Shown here: piece by piece, positions 8,140-41,400 of the stretch
Position numbering within the stretch: position 1 is the first letter of the stretch
How the letters are laid out: each line of letters starts with the position of its first letter
IMG/VR virus record: IMGVR_UViG_3300047564_001818
DNA length: 64,000 nucleotides
Origin: a virus
Taxonomy: Duplodnaviria > Caudoviricetes
Direction: 5' to 3' (one strand)
The notes under the pieces: model-generated
Database searches by the model: none
Told to the model about the DNA's origin: nothing
Seen by the model: only the letters and a program-made list of their open reading frames with translations
Made by a program: the position numbers and the translations under genes

Positions 8140-9243
8140 TTAATTTAATCCAGCTAGACGGCGTAAGTCTAATACGTTACTGTCGTCTGCTTTACTACTA
8201 ATGTTAGATTGTGACTGAGTGTCACGGTTGCCTGTTACTTCTTTGCCTTCTGATAATATTGCCTTCTGCTTCGCTGGACCTTTACCGTCGATAACTGTCG
8301 GTAGATACTTTTCAAACGCAGTTTGTAGTCTGCCTGTTTGAACACTTTCCAGTAAGTCTGTCATTATTTCGCGTTGATCTTTACTTAACGGAGAAATTAA
8401 CTCGTTAATTGTTTTTTCACGCTTAACAGATTCTTCGAGACGCTTTCTTTGAGCTTCTGTTGCTTCTGCTAGTTTCTTTGCTTTTGCAGCAAATGCTTTT
8501 GTTTCTGCTAGTTGCTTGTTTTTTACATCAAGAACTTTTAGAAGTTTCGCAGTTTCTGAACTTTCATTTAGATATGAAACTCCGTACTCTGCCGCAAATG
8601 CTTCAAATATTTTACGACCAAAGTCGTTTCTTCGTGCTGTGTTAATATCTTCTTTAAGCGCATTGATCTCAGCTTTGAGACCTTTTGCAACTGTTTCAGA
8701 TACTGCACGAGCACTTCTTTCGATAAAGTCTTTTTTAACTTTAGCGAAGTGTTCTTTAGCTTCACGTACTAAACGTACTTTTGTTTCAGCTAAATCTTTT
8801 TTATCTTCGTAAAATTCTGCGATTTCATTTGATAGGGCTTCTACCACAAACTCTTCAAGCTTGGCATAGTTTTCAGCCATTGCTCGTTTGTCTGCATGTA
8901 GTTCTAAGATTTCTTTTTGTAGTTGTTCTACTACAAAACCTTTTAGAAGATTTGCATTTTCACGCATAGCTACTGCATAACGTGCTTTTGCTTCTGCTAG
9001 TTGTTTGCGATCTGTTGCAAACTCTGCAATTTCTTCTTGAAGACGCTCAGATAGCATAGCATCAATTGCTTCTACCATTGTCTGCTTATCATGCTCATAC
9101 TTCTGTGCGAATTCTTCGCGAAGATCAGCGGTAGCAGCACGACGGTTTTCGGCAACCTTTGCTTCCCAAGCTTCTTCAATCTGTGCCCTGACCTCTTGTG
9201 AAACAACATCGTTTTCGAAGAGTGTTTTCAGTGCATCTATCAT
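8140..9243 (-). CDS. gp22: Prohead core scaffold, gp22-like (367 aa)
   Basis: Coiled-coil, E/K/A-rich; sits between protease and capsid genes. Confidence 0.85.
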   Translation of the reverse strand: MIDALKTLFENDVVSQEVRAQIEEAWEAKVAENRRAATADLREEFAQKYEHDKQTMVEAIDAMLSERLQEEIAEFATDRKQLAEAKARYAVAMRENANLLKGFVVEQLQKEILELHADKRAMAENYAKLEEFVVEALSNEIAEFYEDKKDLAETKVRLVREAKEHFAKVKKDFIERSARAVSETVAKGLKAEINALKEDINTARRNDFGRKIFEAFAAEYGVSYLNESSETAKLLKVLDVKNKQLAETKAFAAKAKKLAEATEAQRKRLEESVKREKTINELISPLSKDQREIMTDLLESVQTGRLQTAFEKYLPTVIDGKGPAKQKAILSEGKEVTGNRDTQSQSNISSKADDSNVLDLRRLAGLN

Positions 9244-9257
9244 ACCATTCTCCTAGT

Positions 9258-9881
9258 TTATTGGAGTTTGCTGATTATGTTAATCAGCGATTCCTTTAGA
9301 TACTTTTGTGCCTTTTCGTCGTGTCTTGTTGCCTGTGCTAGTTCGTATGCCTTGTAACCTCCGCGGGCATTCATTAGATGCTCGTAGATTGGTGTTGGGT
9401 ATGCACCTGGGGCGCTAGGCTGTGCTACAACGTCCACGGTGATGATTTCAAAATCAGAGACGGTGTTTGAACCGTCTTCTGATACATTGCCGCTACCTCT
9501 CGATGAGACACCTAGTTTAACGCCAGCTTCAAGCATGGTTTTAACTAGTTGCCCCATCGGTGTTGGTAGGATTTTTAGTTTTCCGTAACCATTTGGACCA
9601 TCCATCCACATTTCATTAATCATGTGGCTAACTCTGTCCAAGTTTATATTAAGGCCTTCTGGATGATCCACTTCTCCGAGAACACTATATCCTCCAGTTA
9701 TTTGATCATTGAGAGTTTTGACAGCCCTGCCTATTTCATTTACAGGATACACTCGCTGATTAGCGTTGCGAACGCCGCCTTGAATGCAAATACCTTTCAT
9801 AAAAAGGTCTTTGCCTTCGTTAACGTTTTCGACAACTATCCTAGCTTGGTCGAATGTCAAATGCTCTCGTAAGTTTCTCAT
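9258..9881 (-). CDS. gp21: Prohead protease, gp21-like (207 aa)
   Basis: NANQRVYP, LGEVDHP, LGVSSRGSG, DVVAQPSAPGAY motifs. Confidence 0.95.
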   Translation of the reverse strand: MRNLREHLTFDQARIVVENVNEGKDLFMKGICIQGGVRNANQRVYPVNEIGRAVKTLNDQITGGYSVLGEVDHPEGLNINLDRVSHMINEMWMDGPNGYGKLKILPTPMGQLVKTMLEAGVKLGVSSRGSGNVSEDGSNTVSDFEIITVDVVAQPSAPGAYPTPIYEHLMNARGGYKAYELAQATRHDEKAQKYLKESLINIISKLQ

Positions 9882-9902
9882 TCAAACTTCCTTAATCTTG
9901 CC

Positions 9903-10916
9903 TTACTTTGCGCGGCTGCTTAACTTGTTAAGTGTGCTAGTTGCGCCTTTATCGGCAGTGTCTGGCTTGCCCTTTTTCTCAGCGCCGTGGCCAGGTTGAG
10001 CAGTCATTTTAGTGGCTGCTTTTGCTCCAGGAACGTTTACGTTCTTGGTATTCATATCTTTTGTTGTTGGTGCAGCTAGACCGCCTTTAGTGCCTGCTGA
10101 TTTGCTTTCGCCACCTTTTGCAATGTTAGCACTTGTGCCGCCCATGTTGTTTGGCTTTGCTACTGCTGACTTAGTGTTTACTCCGTTGTCGCCGCCGATC
10201 TTTGAACCTAGATCACCACCGTTAACTTTTTCAACATACTCACGCATTTGCTCAGAAGCTGACTTCTTGTCTTTTTTGTCATCCTTCTTCATCATCTTTT
10301 TTGCTTCTTCTAGATCGTCGTCAGCTTCAAACGCAAAAGATTCTTTTTCTTCTTCGTCGTCTTCACCTTCTTCGTCTTCTTCGTCTTCTTCGTCGTCACC
10401 TTCGTCGTCCATGTCCATATCCATGTCCATGTCGTCGCCTTCGTCGTCGCCGCCCATTAGCTTTTCAAACTCTGCTTTTAGGTCTTCTAGTGCGTCTTCT
10501 AGATCATCTAAACGACCTTCAGTGTCGCCGCCTTCGTCGCCCATGTCCATATCCATATCTATGTCATCGCCGCCTTCGTCGTCCATGCCAAGGTCTGCCA
10601 TCATGTCGTCAGTTGGGTCGCCGCCCATGTCCATTGGATCTGCTTCTACTTCAAACTCATCAAGGTCGAAGCCTTCGTCTAGATCGTCGTCTGACTCATC
10701 TACTTCTTCGTCGTCTGACTCGTCTAGGTCGTCGTCTGACTCATCCACTTCTTCGTCGTCTGCTTCGTCTACTTCTTGATCTTCGTCTTCTAGAAGTGAC
10801 TCGTAAATATCACGTGACTTTTCTACTACGATTTCGTGGAAAAGTTCTTCTGCTGCTGCTCTGTCTTCGTTGATAAGAAGCTCTAGCATTTTTTCAAATT
10901 TGCTTAGATCTGCCAT
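9903..10916 (-). CDS. Highly acidic prohead core-like protein (337 aa)
   Basis: D/E-rich centre, basic C-terminus, own late promoter and AGGAG SD; directly upstream of gp21. Confidence 0.75.
   Translation of the reverse strand: MADLSKFEKMLELLINEDRAAAEELFHEIVVEKSRDIYESLLEDEDQEVDEADDEEVDESDDDLDESDDEEVDESDDDLDEGFDLDEFEVEADPMDMGGDPTDDMMADLGMDDEGGDDIDMDMDMGDEGGDTEGRLDDLEDALEDLKAEFEKLMGGDDEGDDMDMDMDMDDEGDDEEDEEDEEGEDDEEEKESFAFEADDDLEEAKKMMKKDDKKDKKSASEQMREYVEKVNGGDLGSKIGGDNGVNTKSAVAKPNNMGGTSANIAKGGESKSAGTKGGLAAPTTKDMNTKNVNVPGAKAATKMTAQPGHGAEKKGKPDTADKGATSTLNKLSSRAK
10675..10764. repeat. Two tandem 45-nt repeats in the acidic protein gene
   Basis: 10675-10719 vs 10720-10764, 41/45 identical; encode DDEEVDESDDDLDE units. 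Confidence 0.9.
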
Positions 10917-11885: not shown

Positions 11886-11893
11886 TATTTATA
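11886..11893 (-). promoter_or_regulatory. Late promoter (TATAAATA, exact T4 consensus)
   Basis: Overlaps the portal stop codon. Confidence 0.75.
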
Positions 11894-13646
11894 CCGTTTG
11901 GTTAGTTGTTGGCGGAGGCGAACCTAAGTCTTGTCCTGTAGCAGTTTCAGGACCTGCGCCTTCGCCTCCATCTACTGGTGGCGGCTCTTCTCCAGTTTCA
12001 TCTTCTAGTCCGCCAAGATCAGCATCTATGCCAGCACCGCTAATGCCAGCATCTCTCATTTCAGCACTAGCATCGCCTGGTGTAGGATCAAGATTTTCTT
12101 CGTTTTCTTCTCTCCACAAGCGTTCGTTTTCTGCTATCTCTTCTTCGGTCATGCCTAGGAATCGTTTCATTGCAAAACGATTTGAGATATAGGGTATTTG
12201 ACTCATTTGAGTATATGTTGGAACTCTAGCGTTGTCAATTTCTGATTGACGATAAGCAGCAAAGTTTTGTGGTGGTTGGAATTTGAGATCAAACATACTT
12301 GTGTCTATGTTAATGCCTTTTTCTAACATATAACGTTTGAACTCTTGATCAAACTCTTCTACTATTAGGTTTTGCAGACGTTCACAATAGGTGTTAAAAC
12401 GAAGTTCTTGTATGTAGGCTGTGCCCACACGTCCGTCATTATATTGAGCAGCTGAGTCATCTGCCCCAGTTGGTAGGTACGAACTTGGGATACGCAATCC
12501 GCGTACCAGCTTATTAGTGAAGTATCGTAGATCATCAATCTCTCCTAGGTTAGTACCGCCTGGCAGTGTTTCAACTTTTGATCCACGTCCTTCTGCTGTT
12601 TGTGGGAAGAAGTAGTCTTCGTTAATACTCAACGGATTGTAGCTGCTGTCAATAACATTTTGGCCGCCGCCTGTCGAACTAGGAATACGTCTTTGATGTA
12701 TTTCATTTTTAACACGCTCAACAAACGCCATAGCAAGGTGACTAGGCATGTTACCCACATCAACATAGAACACACGTCTTTCAGGAGCACGTTGCACACG
12801 ATAGATAATAATAGCATCTTCAAGCAGTTCTTTTTGTTTGTAAACTTTGAAGATAGTTTCTAATAAGCTGTTGCCAAATGGAAAGTTGTTGTCTAAGCCT
12901 TCTGAGAGACTGAGGTGTACCATATGTTTGGCTTCGATGGCCCATTCATTTTGATCAGTTTGGAAACGACTTCCACTCATGCTTGACTGTGGTTGTCCTA
13001 CCATACCTCTAGCATTGCCTACAGGTTGATATTGACTTCCTCCAGTGCCACCAGTTATAGTGCCGCTTACTTGGAATGGAGTTGTAGCAACACCTTCAAC
13101 AAAGTTAAAGTTTATATTTTTGACCATATACTGTTCAGGAACTTTGCCTTCTGATTCATTAACAATAATACGAGTAACGTTAGCAGGATCAACATGGAAC
13201 CAACGCTTAGTTTCTGGATCACGAAGGAAGAACTGATCGCCAAACTTAAAAACATTTCTTAGTATTTTAAATATTCTTGTTTCAAACTCTTGCAGCTTGC
13301 ACCACTGTTGTAGATACTTCTGAATGATTGTAACTTCTGAGTTTGTGGCCTGTTGTTTGTATTCTACAATAAACGGAGTATTGTTTTGTTTGTTTTTTTG
13401 AGTTGTAAACTCTGCTAGAATATCAAGCGCAGCATTAACTTCACTGTCTAAGTCCATAGTATTATATTGACCATAGCGTTCAACTCTGTTGGGAGATCCA
13501 ACATACACATCAGGTAGATAGCTTGAATAGTTAGAGCGAGCAGGGCCTGCCATGCCTCCGCCATTTCTTAGATTAGTAAAAGGGCTATAACTACCGTTTG
13601 GGTTATTTGCTGTAGGCACGGGGGTAAAATACTTTTTCCAGCTCAT
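11889..13646 (-). CDS. gp20: Portal vertex protein, gp20-like (585 aa)
   Basis: LEDAIIIYRVQRAPERRVFYVDVGNMP, EDYFFPQ...GRGSKVETLPGG, DDLRYF motifs. Confidence 0.95.
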   Translation of the reverse strand: MSWKKYFTPVPTANNPNGSYSPFTNLRNGGGMAGPARSNYSSYLPDVYVGSPNRVERYGQYNTMDLDSEVNAALDILAEFTTQKNKQNNTPFIVEYKQQATNSEVTIIQKYLQQWCKLQEFETRIFKILRNVFKFGDQFFLRDPETKRWFHVDPANVTRIIVNESEGKVPEQYMVKNINFNFVEGVATTPFQVSGTITGGTGGSQYQPVGNARGMVGQPQSSMSGSRFQTDQNEWAIEAKHMVHLSLSEGLDNNFPFGNSLLETIFKVYKQKELLEDAIIIYRVQRAPERRVFYVDVGNMPSHLAMAFVERVKNEIHQRRIPSSTGGGQNVIDSSYNPLSINEDYFFPQTAEGRGSKVETLPGGTNLGEIDDLRYFTNKLVRGLRIPSSYLPTGADDSAAQYNDGRVGTAYIQELRFNTYCERLQNLIVEEFDQEFKRYMLEKGINIDTSMFDLKFQPPQNFAAYRQSEIDNARVPTYTQMSQIPYISNRFAMKRFLGMTEEEIAENERLWREENEENLDPTPGDASAEMRDAGISGAGIDADLGGLEDETGEEPPPVDGGEGAGPETATGQDLGSPPPTTNQTV

Positions 13647-13659
13647 CTATATTCTCCTA

Positions 13660-16176
13660 TCAACGAACAGCACTGATTCTGCCATTTGCAATGTTGCTGC
13701 CCATTGATCTTGTGTTACGCTCTATGTTACCTGAGTCTTCGGCCATCTCTTGCATTACTTCTAATACTTGGCTCATAAGTTTATTTAACTGTTTAATGGT
13801 TTCCTGAGAGCTCTGATTGGTTGTGTTAATACTTTTTACAAGTTCTGTTTTCATGTCTTGTATGTTTTCTGAAAGAATAGCAATGTTGTCTATTTCTATT
13901 TTTGGTATTTCGTTAGTTGGAGTTGATCTCATATTATCAAACATATTTTTTTGAAAATCGACTGGTATACTTCTGCCGTTAGGTAATGGAACAACAGCTT
14001 CAGTGCCATGTAACTGCATTGGGTATCCGCTAGTAGGACCTGTTGCAATACCTCCAGTAGCCATGCCACCGTATCCAGCAAATTCATTTGCTGCGTTTGC
14101 ATTTAACTCACGTTCTTCAACAGTTTCATCGCTGCGCATCCAGTCTGGTAAAAATGATCCAACGTCAGGCAGTTCAAAATCAAATGCACTAGTTACTTTG
14201 TTCCATAAATCGTCAAATATTTTAGAAAAACTAAAATTACTAAACCGATCACTTATATCTGAAAATACTCCGGTTACTGAGTTCCAAGCGTCGGATATCC
14301 ATTCTTCAATTTGAGCAAGACCAAAATATGTAGCTATTCCTGCGAATGCTGCTATTACTGGTGCTACAATTAATGCTCCAATGCCAACAAATGGCGCTGC
14401 TAATAAAACTCCAACACCTACTAGTGCCCCTGTTAAAATTTTACCCCAATTTTCATCAAACCAAGTTGTAATGCCTCCTCCTATAGCACCAAAAGCACTA
14501 CCTAATATATCTGTAAACATTGTTGTAAGCTGCGGTGCAACACTAGTAAATGCACTAGATATTACGCCGCCTTCGCCAAATAAATCTGCAAACAGTCCAT
14601 CTATTTCTACTGTTTGAGGTCCTCCTGTCCGAGTTTCTATAGTTTCAGTTCCGCCAAACAGTGCTGTATCTAAACCAAAATTTCTAAAATTATCAATAAA
14701 AGATTTTATTGTTCCTATAAAATCTTTAAATGCGTTTTTAAAGTCTTCACTTTTTATAAGGTCAGCAACACTTGCAACAGCACCAGCTAGATCTTCAAAT
14801 AATCCACTATCTAATATAGCAGAAGCGATAGTTGCTCTCATTTCTTTGATAGCATCGTCAAAAGTAGTTAAAGTTCCTGTAATTTCTTCTCGTCTAGCTT
14901 GTTCTGCTATTGCTGCATCATATTCAGCAGTTCCGACTTCCATTAGTCTTGTAGCACTATCAAGTATGCTAGCTAGCACTGGATTGCTTTGTCTTAGTGC
15001 AGCAATATAAATAGCTCTCTGCTCACCTTCTAATCCAGCAAACCCTTCTATATTATGACCAGCAGCTTGTAGCGCATCTAATATTACTTGAGGATCAGCA
15101 CCAGCAGCAACTTGACGCATAGCTTCCATTATTTCTGGACCAGCGGCAGTAAGTACCATAATACCTTCTTCAGTCTGAGGTAATCCATCAGCTAGATCTT
15201 TTAGTCCAGCTGCTACGTCTGCAGGTAGTGTATCAATTAAAGCCATACTAGCACGGAAGTTTTCTAGACTGTCTCCTGTTAATTGATTTGCTAAAGCACG
15301 AAATCCTGCATCCTGTGCTTGTGCGGCCATTGATGCTTCTAATTCTTTTCTACTTTTACCAGTAACCTTAGCAAGTCTATCTAGTTGAACTAGGTAATTT
15401 GTAGAGCCCTGAGCCAATTGACCTACACTCATATTTTGCAAGCGACCCATTCTTGATTGAAGTGCAGCATAGTTAGCAATGCCTTCATTAACTTCTTCTA
15501 TTGTAAATCCAAGATTTTTTAGAAAACTAAAATTACCAGTAGCCTTTACAGCTCTATTAATTGCTGTAAATCTATTAACGCCTTCAGTAACAGTGCCACC
15601 TAGCAAACGAAAATTTTCAGAATTATTTCTAACCAAATTTGACATTTCATCTAAATTTAATTCTAAACTAGCGGCTGTCATTCTCATTTCTGTAATACTG
15701 TTATTAAATCCTGCACCTACACTCGATAAATCTCTAAATGTACTGATACTATTGTCAAGCATCTGTGTAAATGGAGTTATTAAGCTACCTATTAAAGGTA
15801 TATGTTGGGCAAAGTCTGAAAGCTGATCGCCGCCATCAAATAAGGCTTTAGTTAATCCAAGAACACTTTGACCGATACTTCCTATCAGTCCGCCTATTGC
15901 ACCAAGCATTGCTTTTGAATACCTGTTGGTAGCGTCAGTGGCTTTCTTAGTGGCTTTGGTTTTTTCTTCTAGTGCATCTCTGTTTTTTGTAACAACAGTA
16001 ATACCGTTTTTAACAGCATCGTTGTGTGCTTTTTGAACTTTGCCTGCTTCTTTTTTCGGATCTCGACCTGTTGAAGCTGCTAGTTTTTCGATTGCTCGTG
16101 TGAGACTGGCCAGTGTAGCTTCACTGGCTACACCGTTTTCACCGCCTACATTACTAATTTCTACTTCTTCGGCCAA
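13660..16176 (-). CDS. Tape measure protein (838 aa, TTG start)
   Basis: Helical A/G/L-rich body; C-terminal MATGGIATGP...HGTEAVVPL motif; next to the gp26/gp51-like pair. Confidence 0.75.
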   Translation of the reverse strand: MAEEVEISNVGGENGVASEATLASLTRAIEKLAASTGRDPKKEAGKVQKAHNDAVKNGITVVTKNRDALEEKTKATKKATDATNRYSKAMLGAIGGLIGSIGQSVLGLTKALFDGGDQLSDFAQHIPLIGSLITPFTQMLDNSISTFRDLSSVGAGFNNSITEMRMTAASLELNLDEMSNLVRNNSENFRLLGGTVTEGVNRFTAINRAVKATGNFSFLKNLGFTIEEVNEGIANYAALQSRMGRLQNMSVGQLAQGSTNYLVQLDRLAKVTGKSRKELEASMAAQAQDAGFRALANQLTGDSLENFRASMALIDTLPADVAAGLKDLADGLPQTEEGIMVLTAAGPEIMEAMRQVAAGADPQVILDALQAAGHNIEGFAGLEGEQRAIYIAALRQSNPVLASILDSATRLMEVGTAEYDAAIAEQARREEITGTLTTFDDAIKEMRATIASAILDSGLFEDLAGAVASVADLIKSEDFKNAFKDFIGTIKSFIDNFRNFGLDTALFGGTETIETRTGGPQTVEIDGLFADLFGEGGVISSAFTSVAPQLTTMFTDILGSAFGAIGGGITTWFDENWGKILTGALVGVGVLLAAPFVGIGALIVAPVIAAFAGIATYFGLAQIEEWISDAWNSVTGVFSDISDRFSNFSFSKIFDDLWNKVTSAFDFELPDVGSFLPDWMRSDETVEERELNANAANEFAGYGGMATGGIATGPTSGYPMQLHGTEAVVPLPNGRSIPVDFQKNMFDNMRSTPTNEIPKIEIDNIAILSENIQDMKTELVKSINTTNQSSQETIKQLNKLMSQVLEVMQEMAEDSGNIERNTRSMGSNIANGRISAVR

Positions 16177-16202: not shown

Positions 16203-16210
16203 CATAAATA
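16203..16210 (+). promoter_or_regulatory. Late promoter (CATAAATA) for the gp26-like gene
   Basis: nATAAATA box 41 nt before the ATG at 16252. Confidence 0.65.
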
Positions 16211-16240: not shown

Positions 16241-16251
16241 CGGAGAACATT

Positions 16252-17121
16252 ATGGTAGATTTTAACCCAGACAACTACGAAGCCAATCCTCTGAAGAAGT
16301 ATTTCAGACAACCTAAAGTCTATGTTACACTGCCTAGCAAGGGTAAGTTCTACCCACAGGGCGCAGTTGAAATGCCAGAAAACGGAGAACTGCCAATCTA
16401 TCCTATGACTGCTAAAGACGAACTTACTATGAAAACTCCTGACGCACTGCTGAATGGACAAGCCACAGTGAGTGTTATTCAAAGCTGTGTGCCTGCTATT
16501 AAAAATGCTTGGGCTATGCCTAGCATTGATCTTGACGCACTGTTGATAGCTATTCGTATTGCTACCTATGGCGATACTATGGAACTGTCTGTTAAGGTTC
16601 CAGGTATAGGCGAAGAAAGAAAATTTGATGTTGATCTGCGCAAGCTGTTAAACAAACTGGTCACAGTAGAATACGAATCAGAAATACAAATCAACAACAT
16701 GACAGTAAGTGTACGTCCTTTAGTCTATAAAGAATTTACTGAAGCTAGTCTTAAAACATTTGAAGAACAGCGTATATTTGCATTGGTTAACAATGAAACT
16801 ATATCAGAACAAGAAAAGCTAGCAAAGTTTAACGAAAGCTTTGCAAAGTTAACTGACTTAACAGTTAAGACTATGAGTAAATGTGTTTCAAAAATTACTG
16901 TAAGCGATACAGTGGTTACTAATCAAAATCACATTGATGAGTTTATACAAAACGCTGACAAAGCTTTTTATAAAGCTGTAGTTGAACATCTTGATCTACA
17001 AAAAGAAAAGTTTCAGATAGAACCTATTCAAGTACACAGCTCAGAAGAAGACATAGCCAAAGGTGCTCCTACAAATTGGACTGTGCCTATTACATTTGAT
17101 CAGTCAAATTTTTTCGCATAA
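16252..17121 (+). CDS. gp26: Baseplate hub assembly protein, gp26-like (289 aa)
   Basis: YFRQPKVYVTLPSKG, PMTAKDEL, DLDALLIAIRIATYG motifs; ends ...QSNFFA. Confidence 0.75.
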   Translation: MVDFNPDNYEANPLKKYFRQPKVYVTLPSKGKFYPQGAVEMPENGELPIYPMTAKDELTMKTPDALLNGQATVSVIQSCVPAIKNAWAMPSIDLDALLIAIRIATYGDTMELSVKVPGIGEERKFDVDLRKLLNKLVTVEYESEIQINNMTVSVRPLVYKEFTEASLKTFEEQRIFALVNNETISEQEKLAKFNESFAKLTDLTVKTMSKCVSKITVSDTVVTNQNHIDEFIQNADKAFYKAVVEHLDLQKEKFQIEPIQVHSSEEDIAKGAPTNWTVPITFDQSNFFA

Positions 17122-17152
17122 GGATCTTGCCTCTAAGTGTAGGTGAGATCCT
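17109..17152 (+). other. Predicted -1 programmed ribosomal frameshift signal
   Basis: T_TTT_TTC (17109-17115), 5-nt spacer, 12-bp hairpin 17121-17132/17141-17152; the -1 frame is open into 17127..17345. Confidence 0.75.
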
Positions 17153-17345
17153 CGAAGAAGTAAAACGCTACGAAGGTGAACAAAAGCAGTTTAAATCAGA
17201 ACTGCTTAAGATCTGCTGGTACATGCGTGGCGGCGTTACTATTGAAGATGCTTATTCTCTATCATTTGAAGATAGACTGTTGATAGGCGATATAATCAAA
17301 GAGAACTTAGAAACTACGAAGAAAAGCGGAATGCCTTTCTTTTAA
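17127..17345 (+). CDS. gp51-like hub assembly catalyst, probably expressed as the frameshift extension of gp26
   Basis: CWYMRGGVTIEDAYSLSFEDR; TTG start only 2 nt after AAGGA, poor for independent initiation. Confidence 0.6.
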   Translation: MPLSVGEILEEVKRYEGEQKQFKSELLKICWYMRGGVTIEDAYSLSFEDRLLIGDIIKENLETTKKSGMPFF

Positions 17346-17944
17346 CGACCTACTGCTCCGAACTGACTTAGTTTTTGATTTTTATCAAAGTTCTTGTCAA
17401 CTGTTGTTGGTTCACGACTAGACTTAAATTGAGGTGCTGCTTTTTGTTTAGCACCTTTGCCAAGAGCAGCAATTAATCTATTTCTTTCTTTGGTTGACAG
17501 TTTAAGTGCAGCATTTTTAACTTGTGCATATTGACTAGACACCTTAGCATTGCCAGCACCAGTACTTGCAGGAGTCTGTGCAGGAGCAGGCTTAGCGCCC
17601 TTACCTCTCATAGCCTGCGTTGCCTTTGCCATAAAGATTTTATTGATTCTGTCAGTGGTCATAGGTTGTGCAGTATCTATATCACCGGTATCTACATTTT
17701 TGCTGTCAAGAAAGTCTATTACATCCTGTGTGTCTGCTTGTTTGTCAGTTTTGTTCTGAGTTCCAAGAAATGTCATAAACTGATTGTAAAGATTGTTAGC
17801 TGTTGCTGCTAGATCTGCTTTACCAGCTAAGTTAGCAGCCGTAGATTTCATACCAGGAACTTTACCTAAAACTTTACTTCCGATACTTTGTGCTGCTTGT
17901 GCAAATCCACCTACAGGTGCTTCTGTTATCTCATTGATTTTCAT
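17342..17944 (-). CDS. Basic late protein, candidate internal head protein (200 aa)
   Basis: AATAAATA promoter at 17970-17977, AAGGA SD, N-terminus MKINEITEA. Confidence 0.65.
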   Translation of the reverse strand: MKINEITEAPVGGFAQAAQSIGSKVLGKVPGMKSTAANLAGKADLAATANNLYNQFMTFLGTQNKTDKQADTQDVIDFLDSKNVDTGDIDTAQPMTTDRINKIFMAKATQAMRGKGAKPAPAQTPASTGAGNAKVSSQYAQVKNAALKLSTKERNRLIAALGKGAKQKAAPQFKSSREPTTVDKNFDKNQKLSQFGAVGR

Positions 17945-31973: not shown

Positions 31974-34900
31974 ATGTCTGCAAGCGATAGACAAAATAGA
32001 CTATTAGTGGCTGAAGATTGGAAAAGAATCTATCAGAGTTTTAGAAATGCAGATTTTCAAAGTTATGACTTTGATAATCTCCGTCGCACAATGATCAACT
32101 ATCTGCGTCAAAACTATCCTGAAGATTTTAATGATTATATTGAAAGCTCAGAATATCTTGCGCTGATTGACATGATTGCGTTTCTTGGACAAAATCTAAG
32201 TTTCCGTATTGATCTAAACGCTAGAGAAAACTTTTTAGAAACAGCAGAACGTAGAGAATCAATACTGCGTCTTGCTAGAATGTTGGCCTATAATCCAAGA
32301 CGAAATCAAGCAGCTAACGGTCTACTAAAAATAACCACAGTTAAAACCACTGAAACAGTGAGAGACAGCTCGGGTGTAAATCTTAGTGGCGTTGTAGTAC
32401 GCTGGAATGATCAGTCAAACAGCAACTACTTTGAACAGTTTATTAAAATACTCAATGCTGCACTTCCTGTTACTAACAGTGTAGGAAATCCTTTAAAGAG
32501 CGAAAACATTGAAGGTGTGCAAACACAAAAATATCGTATTAATGCTACAAACACAACTGTTCCAGTTTTTCCGTTTTCTAAAAATGTCGAAGGTGTGAGC
32601 ACTCGTTTTGAAGTTGTAAGCACAGACTTTGATCGTGGAGTTATAAGAGAAGAGCCACCTCTGCCAGGAACAAGTCCTGCATTTTTATTCCGTGATGACG
32701 GTCAGGGTGCAGGCAGCACTAATACTGGTTTCTTTATGCATTTCCGTCAAGGCAAACTAGACAACGGAACTTTTAATGTATCTAATCCTACACCAAACCA
32801 AGTAGTTTCTATTGATGCTGAAAACATTAATAACTCAGATGTATGGCTATATGCCGTAGACACTAACGGATTTGAAACTATACAATGGAGCAAGCTTGAC
32901 AGTGTAGAAGGCAACAATATTATCTATAACAGTTTGTTCCAAGGTATACGCAACGTATATGCTGTTACTACAAGAATAGGTGATAGAATAAATCTAGTGT
33001 TTAGTGACGGTGTGTTTGGAAATCTTCCCAGTGGAAACTTTAAAATCTATTACAGAACCAGTGCTAACAGACCTAGTGTTATTGCACCCGGCGCCATTGG
33101 AAATGTAAACATAGAAATACCATATCAAGGCCGCAGCGGATCACTAGAAACACTAACATTAGGCCTAAGGTTACAAACCACAGTTGCTAATGGTACTGCT
33201 ACAGAATCCAATGACAGCATTAAACAAAATGCTCCTGCAACTTATTACACACAAAATAGATTAATTACAGGAGAAGATTATAATATTGGTCCGCTTGCTG
33301 TTAGTCAAGATATTATCAAGACCAAAGCTGTAAACAGAATATCAAGTGGAATCAGTAGATATTTTGATCTCAAAGATGTAAGTGGCAAGTATTCAAGCAC
33401 TAGCTTGTTTGCAGACGACGGCGTAGTTTATAAAGAAACATTTGACACAAAAACACAGTTTACTTTTAGTACACAAAGTGATGTTGAAGGCATTATTGTT
33501 AATGTAGTTGAAGGCATTATTTCTAGTACTAACTTAAAAAACTTTTATTACAGCGAGTTTCCACAAATTATTGTAACAGATCTCAATGCTGCATGGGAAA
33601 ATACAACAGAGTTTACGAATCAATATACAGGTTTTATTAAAGACATAGATGGCACTGCTTATACACTGGGATCATTTACTGCTAATAATCTAAGACTTGT
33701 AGAAGCAGGTACACTGATGAGATTTGTACCTCCTCTGTCACAGTCAGGCGCAACACAATATTTTCTACCTAACGGAACCTACACAACCAACAGTGAAGCA
33801 GTAGGAGCAACTTCTTACAAATGGACAAAGGTTGCAGGTGTTACAGGCAACGGAGCACAGACTACAGAAACTGGAGCCGGCGCTGTAACACTGGTTGATC
33901 TAATACCCGATGGTGCCATACTAGAACAGATCATACCAAAGTTTTCTAGATCACTTAGCGATGATTTAAAAACACAAATCATTGATCAAACATTTGCTTA
34001 TAGAGATTACGCACTAAGATATAATGTAAACACTAGATCGTGGACATTAGTTCTAGCAGCTGACATTAACACAGTTGACGATTTTGCTACAGGTAAAACA
34101 GGTGATGCTAGCGGACAAAACCTAGATTCAAGCTGGTTACTGTATTTTAAAACTGATGGCGAAACCTATACTATTACCTATAGAAACCTCAGATATGTAT
34201 TCGAAAGCGCAGAAGAGATACGATTCTTCTTTGACAGTGCTGACAAAGTCTATGATCCAAAAACCAGTAAAATACTGAGAGATAAAATCACAGTACTCAA
34301 CATCAATAAACAACCTGACGCTAATAGTAGCTTTACTAGAGATTTTGTATGGAATATTAGCGACGCCTACAGAGACAAAGAAGGTTATGTTGATACTAGA
34401 AAAATACAGGTACAATTTTTTGACCTAGACGACGATGGTGTAATTGACGATCCTGATCTATTTGAAAAACTAGTCGAACCTAATGTTAACTCACAGCAAA
34501 AGATTGTATTCCAGCAGCGTTATACTACTAGTGACGGAGTAGAAGATTTTAGATATTTTGACAACATCAACAGTACAGTTAAAATTGTAACCAACGAATC
34601 TGCTATTGTTTACAGCAGAGAAGTTGATGGACAGGTTTTCTATCTGTTCGAAGAAGGCGTATTTAAAACACTAAACAAAAGCCGCAACAATACTACTATT
34701 AATACCAATTACAAAGCATTTGTAGGACGCAGCGGTTTAAAGTTCCATTATGTTCATGTAGCAGATTCAAACTATAGAATTGATCCAAGTGCTAGCAATA
34801 TCATTGATACTTATCTGCTTACTAGAAACTACGATACAGAAGTTAGAAAATATCTTGCAGGCGGTAGAGCCACTGAGCCTAAGCCAGAAAGCAATGATCA

Positions 34901-35444
34901 GCTGTTTAGAAATTATGGCAGCGCAATAAATGCAATAAAATCAATAAGCGACGAAATAGTATATCATCCAGTTAAGTACAAGATACTGTTCGGTAATAAA
35001 GCAAAAGAAGATCTACAAGTGAAGTTTAAGATAGTAAGAAACAGAGACCTAGTGGTTAATGAAAATGAACTTAAAGCTGATATTATACAAGCTGTTGACA
35101 GATTTTTTGCTATTGAAAACTGGGACTTTGGAGAAACTTTCTACTTCCAAGAACTTAGCGCATACATTATGAATCAACTTAGCCCAAAATTGTTAAGTGT
35201 TATTATTGTGCCTAGACAAGGATCACAGAGTTTTGGTAGCTTGTTTGAAATAAAATCAGAACCAGATGAAATCTTTATTAGTGCAGCAACAGTATTTGAC
35301 GTAGAAATAATAGACGAACTAACAGCTACTGAGTTACAGTCTTCAGGCACAGTAATAACCAGCGTTACTACAACTACAACCGCAGGCATAGTCAGTTCCG
35401 CAACAGCAACATCAAGCAATACTAGTGGAGGTTACAGCTTCTAA
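31974..35444 (+). CDS. gp6: Baseplate wedge, gp6-like (1156 aa)
   Basis: DFDNLRRTMINYL..YPEDFNDY, NARENFLETAERRESILRLARMLAYNP, FSDGVFG, QNRLITGEDY. Confidence 0.85.
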   Translation: MSASDRQNRLLVAEDWKRIYQSFRNADFQSYDFDNLRRTMINYLRQNYPEDFNDYIESSEYLALIDMIAFLGQNLSFRIDLNARENFLETAERRESILRLARMLAYNPRRNQAANGLLKITTVKTTETVRDSSGVNLSGVVVRWNDQSNSNYFEQFIKILNAALPVTNSVGNPLKSENIEGVQTQKYRINATNTTVPVFPFSKNVEGVSTRFEVVSTDFDRGVIREEPPLPGTSPAFLFRDDGQGAGSTNTGFFMHFRQGKLDNGTFNVSNPTPNQVVSIDAENINNSDVWLYAVDTNGFETIQWSKLDSVEGNNIIYNSLFQGIRNVYAVTTRIGDRINLVFSDGVFGNLPSGNFKIYYRTSANRPSVIAPGAIGNVNIEIPYQGRSGSLETLTLGLRLQTTVANGTATESNDSIKQNAPATYYTQNRLITGEDYNIGPLAVSQDIIKTKAVNRISSGISRYFDLKDVSGKYSSTSLFADDGVVYKETFDTKTQFTFSTQSDVEGIIVNVVEGIISSTNLKNFYYSEFPQIIVTDLNAAWENTTEFTNQYTGFIKDIDGTAYTLGSFTANNLRLVEAGTLMRFVPPLSQSGATQYFLPNGTYTTNSEAVGATSYKWTKVAGVTGNGAQTTETGAGAVTLVDLIPDGAILEQIIPKFSRSLSDDLKTQIIDQTFAYRDYALRYNVNTRSWTLVLAADINTVDDFATGKTGDASGQNLDSSWLLYFKTDGETYTITYRNLRYVFESAEEIRFFFDSADKVYDPKTSKILRDKITVLNINKQPDANSSFTRDFVWNISDAYRDKEGYVDTRKIQVQFFDLDDDGVIDDPDLFEKLVEPNVNSQQKIVFQQRYTTSDGVEDFRYFDNINSTVKIVTNESAIVYSREVDGQVFYLFEEGVFKTLNKSRNNTTINTNYKAFVGRSGLKFHYVHVADSNYRIDPSASNIIDTYLLTRNYDTEVRKYLAGGRATEPKPESNDQLFRNYGSAINAIKSISDEIVYHPVKYKILFGNKAKEDLQVKFKIVRNRDLVVNENELKADIIQAVDRFFAIENWDFGETFYFQELSAYIMNQLSPKLLSVIIVPRQGSQSFGSLFEIKSEPDEIFISAATVFDVEIIDELTATELQSSGTVITSVTTTTTAGIVSSATATSSNTSGGYSF

Positions 35445-38400
35445 TGGCTTACAACGACAATCAAAACGAAAATCCGTTACCAGTTCCAGGCAACGAAAAA
35501 CGTTCAGCATCTGATCTAATTCCAAAGTTTTTTAGAACAGAAGCTAACAGAAAGTTTTTACAAGGAACTATTGATCAATTAATACAGCCCGGAGTTGCAG
35601 AAAAACTAAGCGGATTTGTGGGTCGTAAAACTGCCAAAGCTTTTCGTAGTACAGACAACTATGTGGGTGATGTAAGCAGTAACAGAGAAAATTATCAATT
35701 TGAGCCTGCGGCTGTTATTAAAGACAGTCTAGACAATGTTACTTTTTATAAAGACTACAACGATTATTTAGGAGCTTTAAACTTTTTTGGAGCCAACACC
35801 AGTAATCATGATCGTCTTAACAGCCAAGAATACTATGCTTGGGACCCGCACGTTGACTGGGACAAGTTTGTAAACTTTCGTGAATATTACTGGTTACCTA
35901 ATGGACCATTATCTGTACCAGTGCGCGGCCAACAAAGAACAATAGTTAGCACTTATACTGTTACAACTGTAGTAGAAGATGACAACACAGCATATATTTT
36001 TAACGACGGTTTTGTTAGAAATCCAACACTAAAACTCTACAGAGGTCAAACCTACAGATTTGAAATAGATACCCCTGGACATCCTATTGCTTTTGCTATT
36101 AGCAGAACATTCACGCCGGGTGCTGCTATACTAACTGCAGGTAGAGAAGGCTTGCGAGCAAGTGGATTGTTTGATGGCATACTCTACGGTAACGAATATG
36201 ACCAAGGCGACTTTATTATATTGCCTAGCAGCGGTAGTGTAACCTTTGAAGAAGATGAAAACGTTAGTACATTGTATCCTGATGGTATTCGCAAACTGGG
36301 CGAAGATGGAGAAGAAGTTGCTACTGTTTACATAGAAAAAGGCACAATAGAATTTACTATTCCTGCCAATGCTCCTGATAGACTGTACTATATTAGTAAA
36401 AACAATATTGACACTAGCGGATTGTTTAGAATTTATGATGTTGAAGAAAACACATTTCTTGATGTAGTTGCTGACATATTAGGCAAGAAAACATACCGTA
36501 CTGCTGATGGTATAGAACTGTCAAATGGTATGAAACTAGAGTTTACAGGAGACGTTGCACCTGCCGAATACAGCAACAACTCATGGTATGTAGAAGGTGT
36601 TGGAGACAAAATACGTCTAGTCAAAGACATTGATCTTACAATTCCAGCAGCCTATTCTCAAAATAAATTAGTACCATTTGATGCTGATGCATTTGACATA
36701 TTACCGTTTGCTAATGCTAGTTCATTTCCAGCTGAAAAAGATTATATTGTTATTAACAGAGCAGCACAAGATAAAAATGCTTGGAGTCGCTATAATCGTT
36801 GGTTCCACCGAACTGTAGTAGAAACTAGTTTCTTACGCAACAATCTACCTGTAAACATTGACGAAGAATCTAGAGCCAAACGTCCTATTATTGAGTTTGA
36901 GGCTGGCTTAAAACTTTACAACTTTGGTACAGAAGCCAAGCGCGATGTTGATCTAGTAGACGTTTTTACTAAAGATGTATTTTCTACAATAGAAGGGCAA
37001 ATAGGTTACAACGTAGACGGTATTGACTTTGCTGATGGAATGAGAATATTATTTACAGCAGATACTGACATACTAGTACGTGGTAAAATATATCAAGTTA
37101 ACTTTATACAAATAGGGAATCGTAGACAGATTAGTCTAGTAGAAACTGCTGACAGTGAACCGCTAGAAAACGAAACTGTGTTTATTACCCAAGGCAACAA
37201 ATATGCTGGCCAAACATTCTACTATAACGGCACAGATTGGCGTCTAGCACAAGAAAAAACACAGCGTAACCAACCTCCTATGTTTGACCTTTGCTGTCCG
37301 CAAGGAAACGAATTTGCTGACACTAATGTTTTTGACAGCGCAACATTCAGAGGAACAAAACTTTTTAGCTATAGACAAGGCACTGGCACTGTTGATCCTG
37401 AACTAGGATTTCCTTTAACCTATAGAAATATTGAAAACAGCGGCGATATACTGTTCGACTTCAATCTACTCACTGACAGTTTTACAGTTCAAACTGATAG
37501 CGGCATTGTGACTGTGACTACTGATACTGCTAATCTACGAAAATACAACAATAGAATTGACTTTGCTTGGGTTAATGGCTGGTCGAGTGTAGCATCAACT
37601 AGTAAACAATATGTAGTAAGACAGTATGTAGCAGACGAACTTGTTTTAAATAACTTTGAAATAGATGTCTATGATAAGGCAGGCAATCTTAACGACCTTA
37701 AAGTTATTGTACAAGTCAACAATAGTCTAAAAGTAAAACTACAAGATTATGAAGTTGACAGAACTGATGCCAGGGCATTTGTTCGTTTCTACAATAATCT
37801 AAACGAAGGCGATGTAGTAGTCATTAAAACTCGCAGCGCCACAGAAAAAAATGCCAACGGCTACTACGAGTTCCCGCATAACTTAGAACGCAACCCGCAA
37901 AATCAAGATGTAACAGAGTTTACGTTAGGTGAAGTTATTGATCATGTAGACAGTATGATTGAAGAAATTAACAGTTTCAGTGGTGTATTTCCGGGAACTA
38001 GCAATCTAAGAGACTTAGGCAACGTTGACGCTTACGGTAAGAAGTTTGTTAAGCACACCGGACCTATCAACTTACCTCTCTATCACTTAACTACTAAAGA
38101 TTACAATATTTTTAAAGCACTAAGATACAGCAGAGATGAATATGCCAAGTTTAAACGTGTGTTTTTAGAAACTGCTGAAACATTGGGATTTGATGGCGAA
38201 ACAAGAATACATGTTGACAAAATACTAGCGGATATTAACAAGGACAAAATTAAAAGTCAGCCTTTCTATTTCTCAGACATGATAGGTTATGGACCTCTCA
38301 ACAGAATAGAATATGAAGTTTTAGATTCTAGGTCAATTTTTTATGCTCTTAGTAGAACATTCTCACTGTCAACAGTTAGTTCAGCTAGTGTATTAATATA

Positions 38401-41400
38401 TCTAAACGGTCGTCAACTGATACACAGCAGAGACTACACATTTAACACAGACGGTTATGCACTGATCAGTGCAGGCCAACAAGAAGGCGACATAATCGAA
38501 ATAGTTGAATACTCTACAACTGACGGTAGCTTCATTGCTCCAACTCCTTCTAAACTAGGCCTATTCCCTAAGTATGAACCTGAACTGACTATAGACGACA
38601 CTTATCAAACTGAAGAACCTAGCACTACAGGCCCATACAAGATTTATGGAGAAGTTGACGTTGGTCCAATTCTAGCAGGTACTAGAGGTTGGTTCTATCC
38701 TGTTTATACTACACGTTCGGCAGCACGAGCAGCAGATCAAGCACTTGGCGGCACAGGAGTAGTCGAATCGTATCAGTTTAAAGGTCTTAATAGAACGTTG
38801 TATATGGCAGTAAATGCCCAAAATACTAGAGGCGGCCAAGATAACATAGAAATAGATGCTTATCCTGTAGGTATACCTTTTGTGAGAGGTCACGACGGCA
38901 GCTATATTAGAGCTTATCTTGACTATAGAGATAATCTACTAATAGAACTAGAAAATAGAATATTTAATAACATCAAGGTTGAATGGTCAGAAGACATAAC
39001 AGATATCTACAGTTTCCTTGGCGGCGATTTTAGAACTAGTGAGTTCTCTAAAACTGAAATTGACAGAAGCTTGCTAACAGATTTTACCCAATGGCTGAAG
39101 TTAGTAGATAACGATTATACTGACAATTTCTTTTATGATAGACTAAACGAGTTTACATTCAACTATTCAAATGCTAATAATCCTCAAGGCAAACTGATAC
39201 CGGGATTTTGGAGAGGCGTGTACAAACGTGCGTTTGACACAGACCGTCCTCACAGTCATCCATGGGAAATGATAGGATTTGCTATTAAACCTGAGTGGTG
39301 GAACACAGTGTATGGACCTGCTCCGTACACTAGCGATAACTTAATAATGTGGAGAGACTTAGAACAAGGTATCGTAAGAGAGCCAAATAAAGAAACAGTA
39401 GTTCGTGCTAAGTTTACTAGACCTGGTCTAGTAAACTTTATTCCTGTAGATGATCAAGGCCGCTTAAAATCACCATTGGCATCTAGTTATGTTAAAAACT
39501 TTGTACCGAGATTAAGTACAGGTAACTTTAACTTTGGAGATGAAGCACCTGTAGAAACAGCATGGCGAAGAAGTTCGCAGTATCCATTTGCTGTAATTAC
39601 AAGCTTGCTCTTAAACAAGCCTGCCCAAACTATGGGCTCGGGGTTTGACGTTAGCAGAATTTCTAAAAACTTAGCAGGTCAAAAGGTTTACGCAGCGTCG
39701 AGTAAACCAATATCAAATCTAGACATTGTATTTCCTAATACAATTTCTGACAATCAAAGAATATTAACTGCTGGTTTTGTAAACTACATTTACAATCTAG
39801 TAGCTAGTGACATACTAGCAGTATATAGTGACTATCAAACACAACTTACAAGTTTGACAAATCAGCTAGGCTTTAAACTAGGTGGATTTACTGACACACA
39901 AAAGTTAAATCTAATACTTGAAAGCAGATCGCCTGCTGCAACGTTTGAAGGCGGCGTGTTTGTACCTCAGGAAAACTATAAAATAGTATTCAATACTAGT
40001 TCTCCTGTTGATCTAGCAGTTTATAGCGGTGTAGCAGTAGAAAAGGTAGCCAACGGATTTGTTGTGAGAGGTTATAACAACGATGCTCCGTTCTTTGAAT
40101 ACTATGCACCTAGAACAGGTACTAGTGGTGTTTCTGTAACAGTAGGCGGAATCTCAGAAACTGCTTCAGAATGGCGATCAAATACTAGATACCAAGAAGG
40201 TCAAATTATACAAAATACCAATGCCTTCTATAGAGCAACGGCAACTTTTACGTCAGGCAACACTTTTGACACTGATAACCTAGCACGATTACCAGTATTA
40301 CCTATTGTTGGCGGAAAAACAGCAGAGTTTAAGCGAACTTTTGAAAATACACAAGTTAGATCAATACCATACGGAACGTTACTAGCAAACAGCCAGGCAG
40401 TAGTTGACTTTTTATTAGGATATGGTGCTAGACTAGAAGATATAGGATTTGATTTTAACTTTGTAGAAAACGAAGGTCGTGTTAACAACTGGGATTCAGC
40501 AGCAAGAGAGTTCTTGTTCTGGACCACACAAGGTTGGGCCAGCGGCACTGTGATTACAATATCGCCGGCAGCTAATAGATTCTTTTTCCAAAGAGATTAT
40601 GCTGTTGTTGATGACATTTACGACAAGTTTTACAATTACAGTATACTTCAAGCAGACGGTCAATCACTGCCTAGAGAGTTTGGCAGCTTGTTAAGAGATC
40701 AAAACAGTTTTGGTTTAGAAACTGTAAACACAGACGAAGGGCTTTACTCAATAGCATTGCCCTTAGTACAAAAAGAACACGTAGTACTACTAGACAATCG
40801 CACAATATTTAACGATATTGTTTACCAGCCTAGCACAGGCTATCGCAGAGACAGAATTAAAGTAGCAGGTTATCGTTCAGACAACTGGAACGGCGGCCTA
40901 AATATTCCTGGTTTTGTATACGACGAAGCAATAACCACAGAATGGACACAGTGGCGAGATTATGCTATAGGTAGCTTGGTTAAGTATAAACAGTTTTACT
41001 ATGTGGCTACTGAAAATGTTTCCGGTAGTAAAGATTTTAATAGTAACTTCTGGTTTAGACTAAATGAAAAGCCAGCGCCAGAACTGATCACTAACTTTGA
41101 TTACAGAATCAACCAGTTTACAGATTTCTATGACCTAGACACCGATGGATTTGACGCTGAACTACAGCGTATGGCACAACATTTAACAGGTTATCAAAAG
41201 CGCCAGTACCTTGCTAACATCATTAACGACGATGTTAGCCAGTACAAGTTCTATCAAGGTATGATACAAGACAAAGGTACTAAGAATGCACTTACAAAAC
41301 TGTTTGGCAAGCTTAGTTCGGCCGGCGAAGAAAGTCTTGAGTTTTTTGAAGAATGGGCGCTACAAGTAGGACGTTTTGGTGCAGTTGATAGTGTACAGCA

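Follow-up and report, generated by a model that had tools for sequence, protein, structure and literature searches.

The window analysed here, a 64,000-nucleotide stretch of DNA from a virus of the Caudoviricetes (IMG/VR record IMGVR_UViG_3300047564_001818), carries a single-copy gene of the T4 gp26/gp51 family that very probably yields two proteins, a 289-aa form and a 364-aa form, the latter by a -1 slip on the sequence U_UUU_UUC. Comparison of homologous loci established the signal, its register, the conservation of the -1 frame as coding sequence, the existence of homologues fused in frame, and the existence of two-gene relatives that lack the signal. The slippage itself, the slip rate and the function of the products are inferred, there being no protein, ribosome-profiling or RNA data.

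The zero-frame gene, ORF1 (16252..17121, + strand), encodes the 289-aa short form, a gp26-family baseplate hub assembly protein, and ends AAT TTT TTC GCA TAA. Two upstream elements were read from the sequence: a Shine-Dalgarno GGAG (16242..16245, +), 6 nt 5' of the ATG, and a T4-late-promoter-like sequence, CATAAATA (16203-16210), which remains putative without function data. The slippery heptamer T_TTT_TTC (17109..17115, +) falls on a conserved Phe-Phe motif near the 3' end and is followed, after a 5-nt spacer, by a hairpin of 12 bp with an 8-nt loop and two G-U pairs (17121..17152, +; arms 17121-17132 and 17141-17152), a candidate frameshift stimulator. Read in the -1 frame, the sequence continues as ..NFF-RIRILPLSVGE.. 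for 76 codons to a stop at 17343-17345; this extension (17115..17345, +, stop included) would supply the long form with its C-terminal domain. The transframe product, 16252-17115 joined to 17115-17342 (+), consists of 288 + 76 residues and is therefore 364 aa long, with GAPTNWTVPITFDQSNFFR as its predicted junction tryptic peptide. An initial annotation, made without database searches, had described the terminal codons of ORF1, the heptamer in its X_XXY_YYZ register, the hairpin and the 364-aa fusion, and all were found in the window, the fusion by translation. At its stop the extension overlaps by 4 nt (17342-17345) the 3' end of a convergent 200-aa ORF (17342-17944, -), whose only match was a weak one in PHROG, to 'Hsp70 heat shock protein' (E 3e-4).

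ORF1 is a member of PF12322 (T4_baseplate), the family of T4 gp26 and gp51, which it matched over residues 41-243 at 48.4 bits (curated cut-off 24.5; E 1.3e-12), in support of its earlier description as gp26-like. It also matched PHROG 150, 'baseplate hub' (E 3.7e-15), and its AlphaFold2 model had a pLDDT of 83; from BFVD only other baseplate-hub proteins were retrieved. The window spans the structural region of a jumbo myovirus related to T4 and encodes gp46/gp47, a gp55-type late sigma factor, a major head protein, a gp20-type portal (11889-13646) and baseplate proteins that resemble gp5, gp25 and gp6. By protein similarity the closest isolates are Phosso, Atu_ph07, PA5oct and the Rak2-like phages (27-34% identity); no match to the locus was found at the nucleotide level when it was searched by blastn against 50,697 phage records. 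An ORF of 5133 aa (35444-50845, +), among the largest phage ORFs likely to be met, immediately follows the gene of the gp6-like baseplate wedge protein (31974-35444), and a SegE-type GIY-YIG homing endonuclease gene (18776-19225, -; PF19835, E 1.7e-33) separates the locus of ORF1 from the genes of the recombination nucleases gp46/gp47.

Divergently transcribed from ORF1 is a gene for an 838-aa protein (13660..16176, -). Its position is occupied likewise in PA5oct, BF, RaK2, 121Q, GAP32, XaC1, SCTP-2, RsoM2USA and the metagenomic contig L055, and the syntenic counterparts in relatives are annotated as virion structural proteins, with tape-measure similarity given in the RaK2 record. Searches of Pfam and PHROG with the 838-aa protein returned no match; in the ESM Atlas the nearest Pfam-bearing clusters were tape measure proteins (0.93-0.94), which serves as a lead only. 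By inference this neighbour is probably the tape measure protein. The parallel drawn in the initial annotation, with chaperone pairs beside the tape measure gene, thus carries a caveat: the neighbour is only a probable tape measure, and its gene is not downstream of ORF1 but transcribed in the opposite direction.

To examine conservation of the slippery site, homologous loci were gathered by similarity to ORF1 alone, without the site as a criterion. The sample comprised 25 IMG/VR contigs (38-75% identity), ten isolated jumbo phages and four others, and it spans Rak2-like jumbo phages, Atu_ph07, KVP40, cyanophages and a pelagiphage. The 14 isolates were Atu_ph07, Phosso, PA5oct, Serratia BF, RaK2, 121Q, GAP32, XaC1, SCTP-2, RsoM2USA, KVP40, Syn9, P-SSM2 and HTVC008M, the last four of which were located with the Pfam model. 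All 32 distinct loci had the heptamer in the correct frame, even where protein identity was as low as about 27-30%, so that the check proposed at the outset, on the slippery site and the -1 register across homologues, was passed on both counts. Within the pattern NNT TTT TT(C/T/A), 29 loci had TTTTTTC, two had TTTTTTT and one had TTTTTTA. The residue before Phe-Phe differs among the loci (N, S, H, D, R or V) and its codon is AAT, AGT, TCT, CAT, GAT, CGT or GTT, with T as the third base in every one of the 32. In the other ORFs of the window, T_TTT_TTY encodes a single Phe-Phe pair out of 37, and conservation of Phe-Phe in the protein therefore does not account for the nucleotide pattern. Judged on these sequences, an X_XXY_YYZ heptamer in the zero-frame register with conserved synonymous positions, as is looked for in a programmed -1 site, is present here. 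The site and the -1 register are kept in every homologue checked that lacks a separate gene for the long form. The overlapping heptamer A_AAT_TTT was also considered as the shift site and rejected: neither tRNA could re-pair on it, and the AAT codon is not conserved in the family.

A separate observation concerns Phe-Phe pairs across the window as a whole. In ORFs of at least 150 aa, TTT makes up 80% of Phe codons, yet the slippery T_TTT_TTY form occurs at the single pair in 37 noted above and a T-ending codon precedes Phe-Phe in just 5 of the 37, which suggests selection against accidental frameshift sites.

The same NFFR fusion could also be made if RNA polymerase added one U on the T6 run, giving a subset of mRNAs that encode it in a single frame. 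The identical product and the longer runs at the site in two relatives (T9 in RsoM2USA and T7 in HTVC008M) are compatible with such transcriptional slippage, but we regard it as very improbable. Bacterial RNA polymerase generally needs runs of about 8-9 bases to slip, and the T6 run is short. The run is, moreover, always phased as T|TTT|TTC behind a T-ending codon, a phasing that is needed for tandem tRNA re-pairing and is irrelevant to a polymerase, and which therefore counts against slippage during transcription. NNC TTT TTT, equally a run of six T, was never found among the 32 loci.

The three reading frames beyond the heptamer behave differently across the relatives. The zero-frame tail past Phe-Phe is 0 to 11 codons long and unconserved, and the +1 frame closes within a few codons, whereas the -1 frame is open for 57-82 codons in all loci. 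Alignment A1 shows conservation of the -1 peptide from the very first position, the peptide beginning R-x-(R/K)-(I/L)-L and continuing with the motif W-(Y/F)-M-R-G-G and then, at the C terminus, N-L-E-T-T-K-K. Searching 1.84 billion representative proteins with a profile of the extension gave 491 matches, most of them ORFs of 44-98 aa with inconsistent N termini. Among the best 150 of these 491 were 19 single-frame proteins of 319-351 aa that have the extension as their C terminus. In these natural in-frame fusions, which come from uncultured relatives, the junction reads ..(N/Q/S)-F-R-x-(K/R)-(I/L)-(I/L), and when one of them (P0140) was compared with Atu_ph07 and Phosso by tblastn 98% of its length was aligned, as two segments in different frames. 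The coding DNA of P0140 and of a second fusion, P0118, was not found in viral or metagenome collections, and no pattern scan was possible on the alignment of these fusions (A2), its sequences being too diverse. AlphaFold2 modelled a natural fusion as a confident single unit (pLDDT 90.6, pTM 0.86), with the extension forming three main helices and a short fourth between the last two. No structure in the PDB matched this model at E <= 0.001 by Foldseek, the extension gave only generic helical matches in VIA-align (Z <= 6), and nothing meaningful was retrieved with it from Pfam or PHROG, even at E 10.

These data bear on the reading under which the locus holds two separate genes, the 72-aa ORF being translated from the TTG at 17127, or by termination-reinitiation after the TAA at 17119, to give a free gp51-like protein. 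GenBank annotates relatives in this manner (BF gp247, 121Q 595, GAP32_242, KVP40.0327 and Syn9 gp13), and an ATG lies within the first three -1 codons in Atu_ph07, Phosso, 121Q, KVP40 and P-SSM2, so that separate initiation is possible in those five relatives. In the window, however, the TTG is the only early start and follows AAGGA at a spacing of just 2 nt, as the initial annotation had correctly remarked, and no ATG occurs before codon 36 of the extension. Across the family the starts are ragged, the first ATG falling anywhere from codon 1 to codon 47 and none being present in PA5oct, yet residues 5' of any start are conserved as protein. Neither the invariant NNT TTT TTY nor the in-frame fused homologues would be explained by two separate genes, and we consider this reading very improbable. 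That the frame break is functionless, whether by chance overlap, sequencing error or decay of the gene, has nothing beyond the bare existence of the break in its favour and is effectively refuted by the comparative data, the same break recurring at this motif and in this register across 32 distinct loci of independent origin, both isolates and metagenomes, with both frames conserved as protein.

Production of both forms from one gene by a -1 slip can be set against the arrangement in T4, where gp26 (208 aa) and gp51 (249 aa) are hub assembly chaperones (Leiman et al. 2010, PMC3004832, Table 2) and gp51 is needed for assembly and absent from the particle (PMC3004832). Both T4 proteins match the PF12322 model over its full length. 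In gp26 the domain stands alone, and in gp51 it occupies residues 1-201 and is followed by a 48-aa tail; gp51 homologues carry a second, newer Pfam domain, PF28602. T4 gp26 ends ..EFFELL and so stops at the same Phe-Phe motif as the short form of the window. When the alignment of the fusion was compared with that of gp51 by hhalign, the two were colinear across the shift site (query 47-348 to target 30-255; probability 85%, E 6e-6), and the match of the extension alone to the C terminus of T4 gp51 was modest (E 7e-4 / 8.5e-5, probability 26-60%). Going by these profile alignments, the predicted long form is of the gp51 type, having past PF12322 a tail homologous to that of gp51, with the caveat that the extension-alone match is modest. 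The description of the 72-aa ORF as gp51-like consequently stands for the C-terminal tail of T4 gp51 but not for gp51 as a whole.

The window and T4 thus share the family, and gp51, its C-terminal tail included, aligns colinearly with the predicted long form, whereas T4 uses two paralogous genes, divergently transcribed, in place of one gene and a slip. That genes 26 and 51 are separate in T4 had been stated in the initial annotation and is correct. Phe-Phe is encoded by the non-slippery TTC TTT in T4 and by the slippery TTT TTC in the window, and the extension has 76 aa in the window against about 48 aa in T4 gp51. Gene 25 directly follows gene 26 in T4. A second two-gene relative is L055, which keeps the synteny of the window: the portal gene is followed by a gene for an 824-aa homologue of the 838-aa protein (E 2e-13) and then by an orthologue of ORF1 (31% identity, E 4e-50) that ends ..SSFI on the non-slippery TCT TTC. 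Next comes a second PF12322 gene, in which the extension is in frame behind the junction CGT TTT CGT. Taken as controls, T4 and L055 indicate that relatives with a separate long gene lack the slippery site, which is invariant in those without such a gene. An intein splits the T4-type portal gene of L055 (3596-6481, -) and carries an HNH endonuclease (Pfam Intein_splicing, E 1.3e-15; HNH_3, E 1e-4).

Two further observations were made in these relatives. Two Cys-x-x-Cys pairs, a putative zinc ribbon, are invariant in the in-frame long paralogues (C95, C98, C251, C254) and occur in both T4 gp26 and gp51, whereas these four Cys are absent from ORF1 of the window, from its close relatives and from the short paralogue of L055 (ORF A, 9018-10001); one gp26/gp51 lineage appears, on sequence, to have lost the putative ribbon. 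In a T4-like IMG/VR contig (L042, 58% identity), the end of the gp26 gene encodes Phe-Phe as GAG TTT TTT AAA; with G as the base before it, this T6 run departs from the canonical X_XXY_YYZ, and the -1 frame at that point is gene 25, which has its own ATG.

The small ORFs annotated in relatives were also compared with the extension. GenBank notes record that KVP40.0327 and Syn9 gp13 match only the C terminus of gp51, the former being like 'a 40 amino acid stretch at the C-terminus' of gp51, and gp51 of cyanophages and vibriophages was described as lacking the first ~200 aa (Sullivan et al. 2010, PMC3037559). Both ORFs occupy the same position and the same -1 frame as the extension of the window, past an NNT TTT TTC that ends a gp26-like gene, but they are annotated as independent genes, and a frameshift is proposed neither in the GenBank notes nor in PMC3037559. 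The small ORFs of KVP40 and the cyanophages have 57-65 codons against 76 in the window, and by tblastn the extension of the window was too diverged to be linked with them.

The hairpin downstream of the heptamer is stable in the window (dG -17.5 kcal/mol), with a z-score of -3.0 for the 60 nt downstream and of -4.1 for region 17109-17170, in which 0 of 200 shuffles folded as well. In the five closest sequences, 90% of the cells are paired, against 38-52% with the partners slid, and two pairs are changed on both sides; with n=5, shuffle controls were not exceeded. On the covariation that the initial annotation had suggested looking for, the five-sequence signal stays within the shuffle controls, and the hairpin is not family-wide. 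Of the conserved RNA structure that is looked for 5-9 nt past a programmed -1 site, the window and its close clade have this hairpin. Different hairpins occur at the site in Atu_ph07, PA5oct and RsoM2USA, none was seen downstream of the heptamer in contigs L009-L016, L020 and L023 or in BF, RaK2 and GAP32, and no Rfam family matched 16900-17400. The hairpin was accordingly rejected as a family-wide stimulator, many relatives having none, and its lack of conservation beyond the nearest clade means that no general stimulator has been identified. It is plausibly a lineage-specific local enhancer and not a defining feature.

The arrangement proposed for the window resembles that of lambda gpG/gpGT and P2 E/E', which are frameshifted tail assembly chaperones (Atkins et al. 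2016, PMC5009743), and the same review describes the G-T frameshift as conserved in long-tailed phages 'except T4' (PMC5009743). As in those systems, a non-structural tail-assembly gene would have, towards its 3' end, a heptamer on which a -1 slip occurs, the products would be short and C-terminally extended forms with a common N terminus, and the gene adjoins a tape measure gene, in the window a probable one. The heptamers differ (U_UUU_UUC in the window, G_GGA_AAG in lambda G/GT-type systems), and so does the gene order: a G/GT-type pair lies on the same strand between the tail tube and tape measure genes, whereas the window gene is divergent from the putative tape measure gene and does not have this placement. 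No sequence similarity to any Phage_TAC Pfam family was detected.

In VIA-align searches with a fused homologue, the only matches to the N-terminal ~90 residues were weak ones to 3klu (YqbN, Z 4.8), 2ob9 (Z 4.7) and 3fgx (Z 4.2). The second of these is the HK97 tail assembly chaperone, and the other two we take, as XkdN-like proteins, to be of the chaperone type. None of the three was in the top 50 for the model of the window's own ORF1, a list filled by a helical hairpin. A G/GT-like chaperone role, including the non-structural nature of both forms and what they bind, is inferred by analogy and not shown, the inference being drawn because of T4 genetics and these weak fold matches to tail assembly chaperones. 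Both products of a G/GT-type pair would be missing from virions, with the shared part bound to the tape measure and the extension to the tube; the only precedent for this is the T4 one of gp51.

Under the proposed mechanism, most ribosomes would stop at the TAA at 17119 and release the short form, the equivalent of gp26. A fraction of ribosomes with tRNA-Phe in both the P and A sites on UUU UUC would slip back by one base; this tandem slippage on U_UUU_UUC may be aided in the window by the hairpin 5 nt downstream, with an efficiency in the host that is unknown. The slipped ribosomes would read CGC AUA AGG and onward to the stop at 17343 and so produce the long form, whose extra 76-residue helical domain would correspond to the C-terminal tail of T4 gp51. 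Together the two forms might act, like those of lambda G/GT, as non-structural chaperones of hub and tape-measure assembly, the shared body binding the hub or tape measure and the extension recruiting another subunit.

No report of this frameshift was found in the full-text literature or in the GenBank records of relatives; most subscription journals were not covered, and the absence of a report is unproven. We suggest, as a tentative proposal that may prove wrong, that the G/GT-type chaperone of tail or hub assembly, long missing from the T4 superfamily as a whole, is the gp26/gp51 family. Expression by the -1 slip on U_UUU_UUC would then be ancestral and retained by cyanophages, pelagiphages, KVP40-like phages and Rak2-like jumbo phages, T4 genes 26 and 51 and the tandem pair of L055 would be derived, 'hard-wired' duplicates, and the role of the extension would be to bring a tube or hub subunit to the tape measure. 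If this is true, the textbook exception 'except T4' for tail-chaperone frameshifting (PMC5009743) would be removed, and the puzzle noted in 2010, that 'gp51' of cyanophages and marine vibriophages is only about 20% of the normal length (PMC3037559), would be explained. One core gene would be re-annotated in hundreds of T4-related genomes, among them those of jumbo phages and of cyanophages that abound in the ocean. There would be a testable way into what T4 gp26 and gp51 do biochemically, which is still unknown, and the ratio of short to long form would become open to study by locking or abolishing the slip in cultivable relatives.
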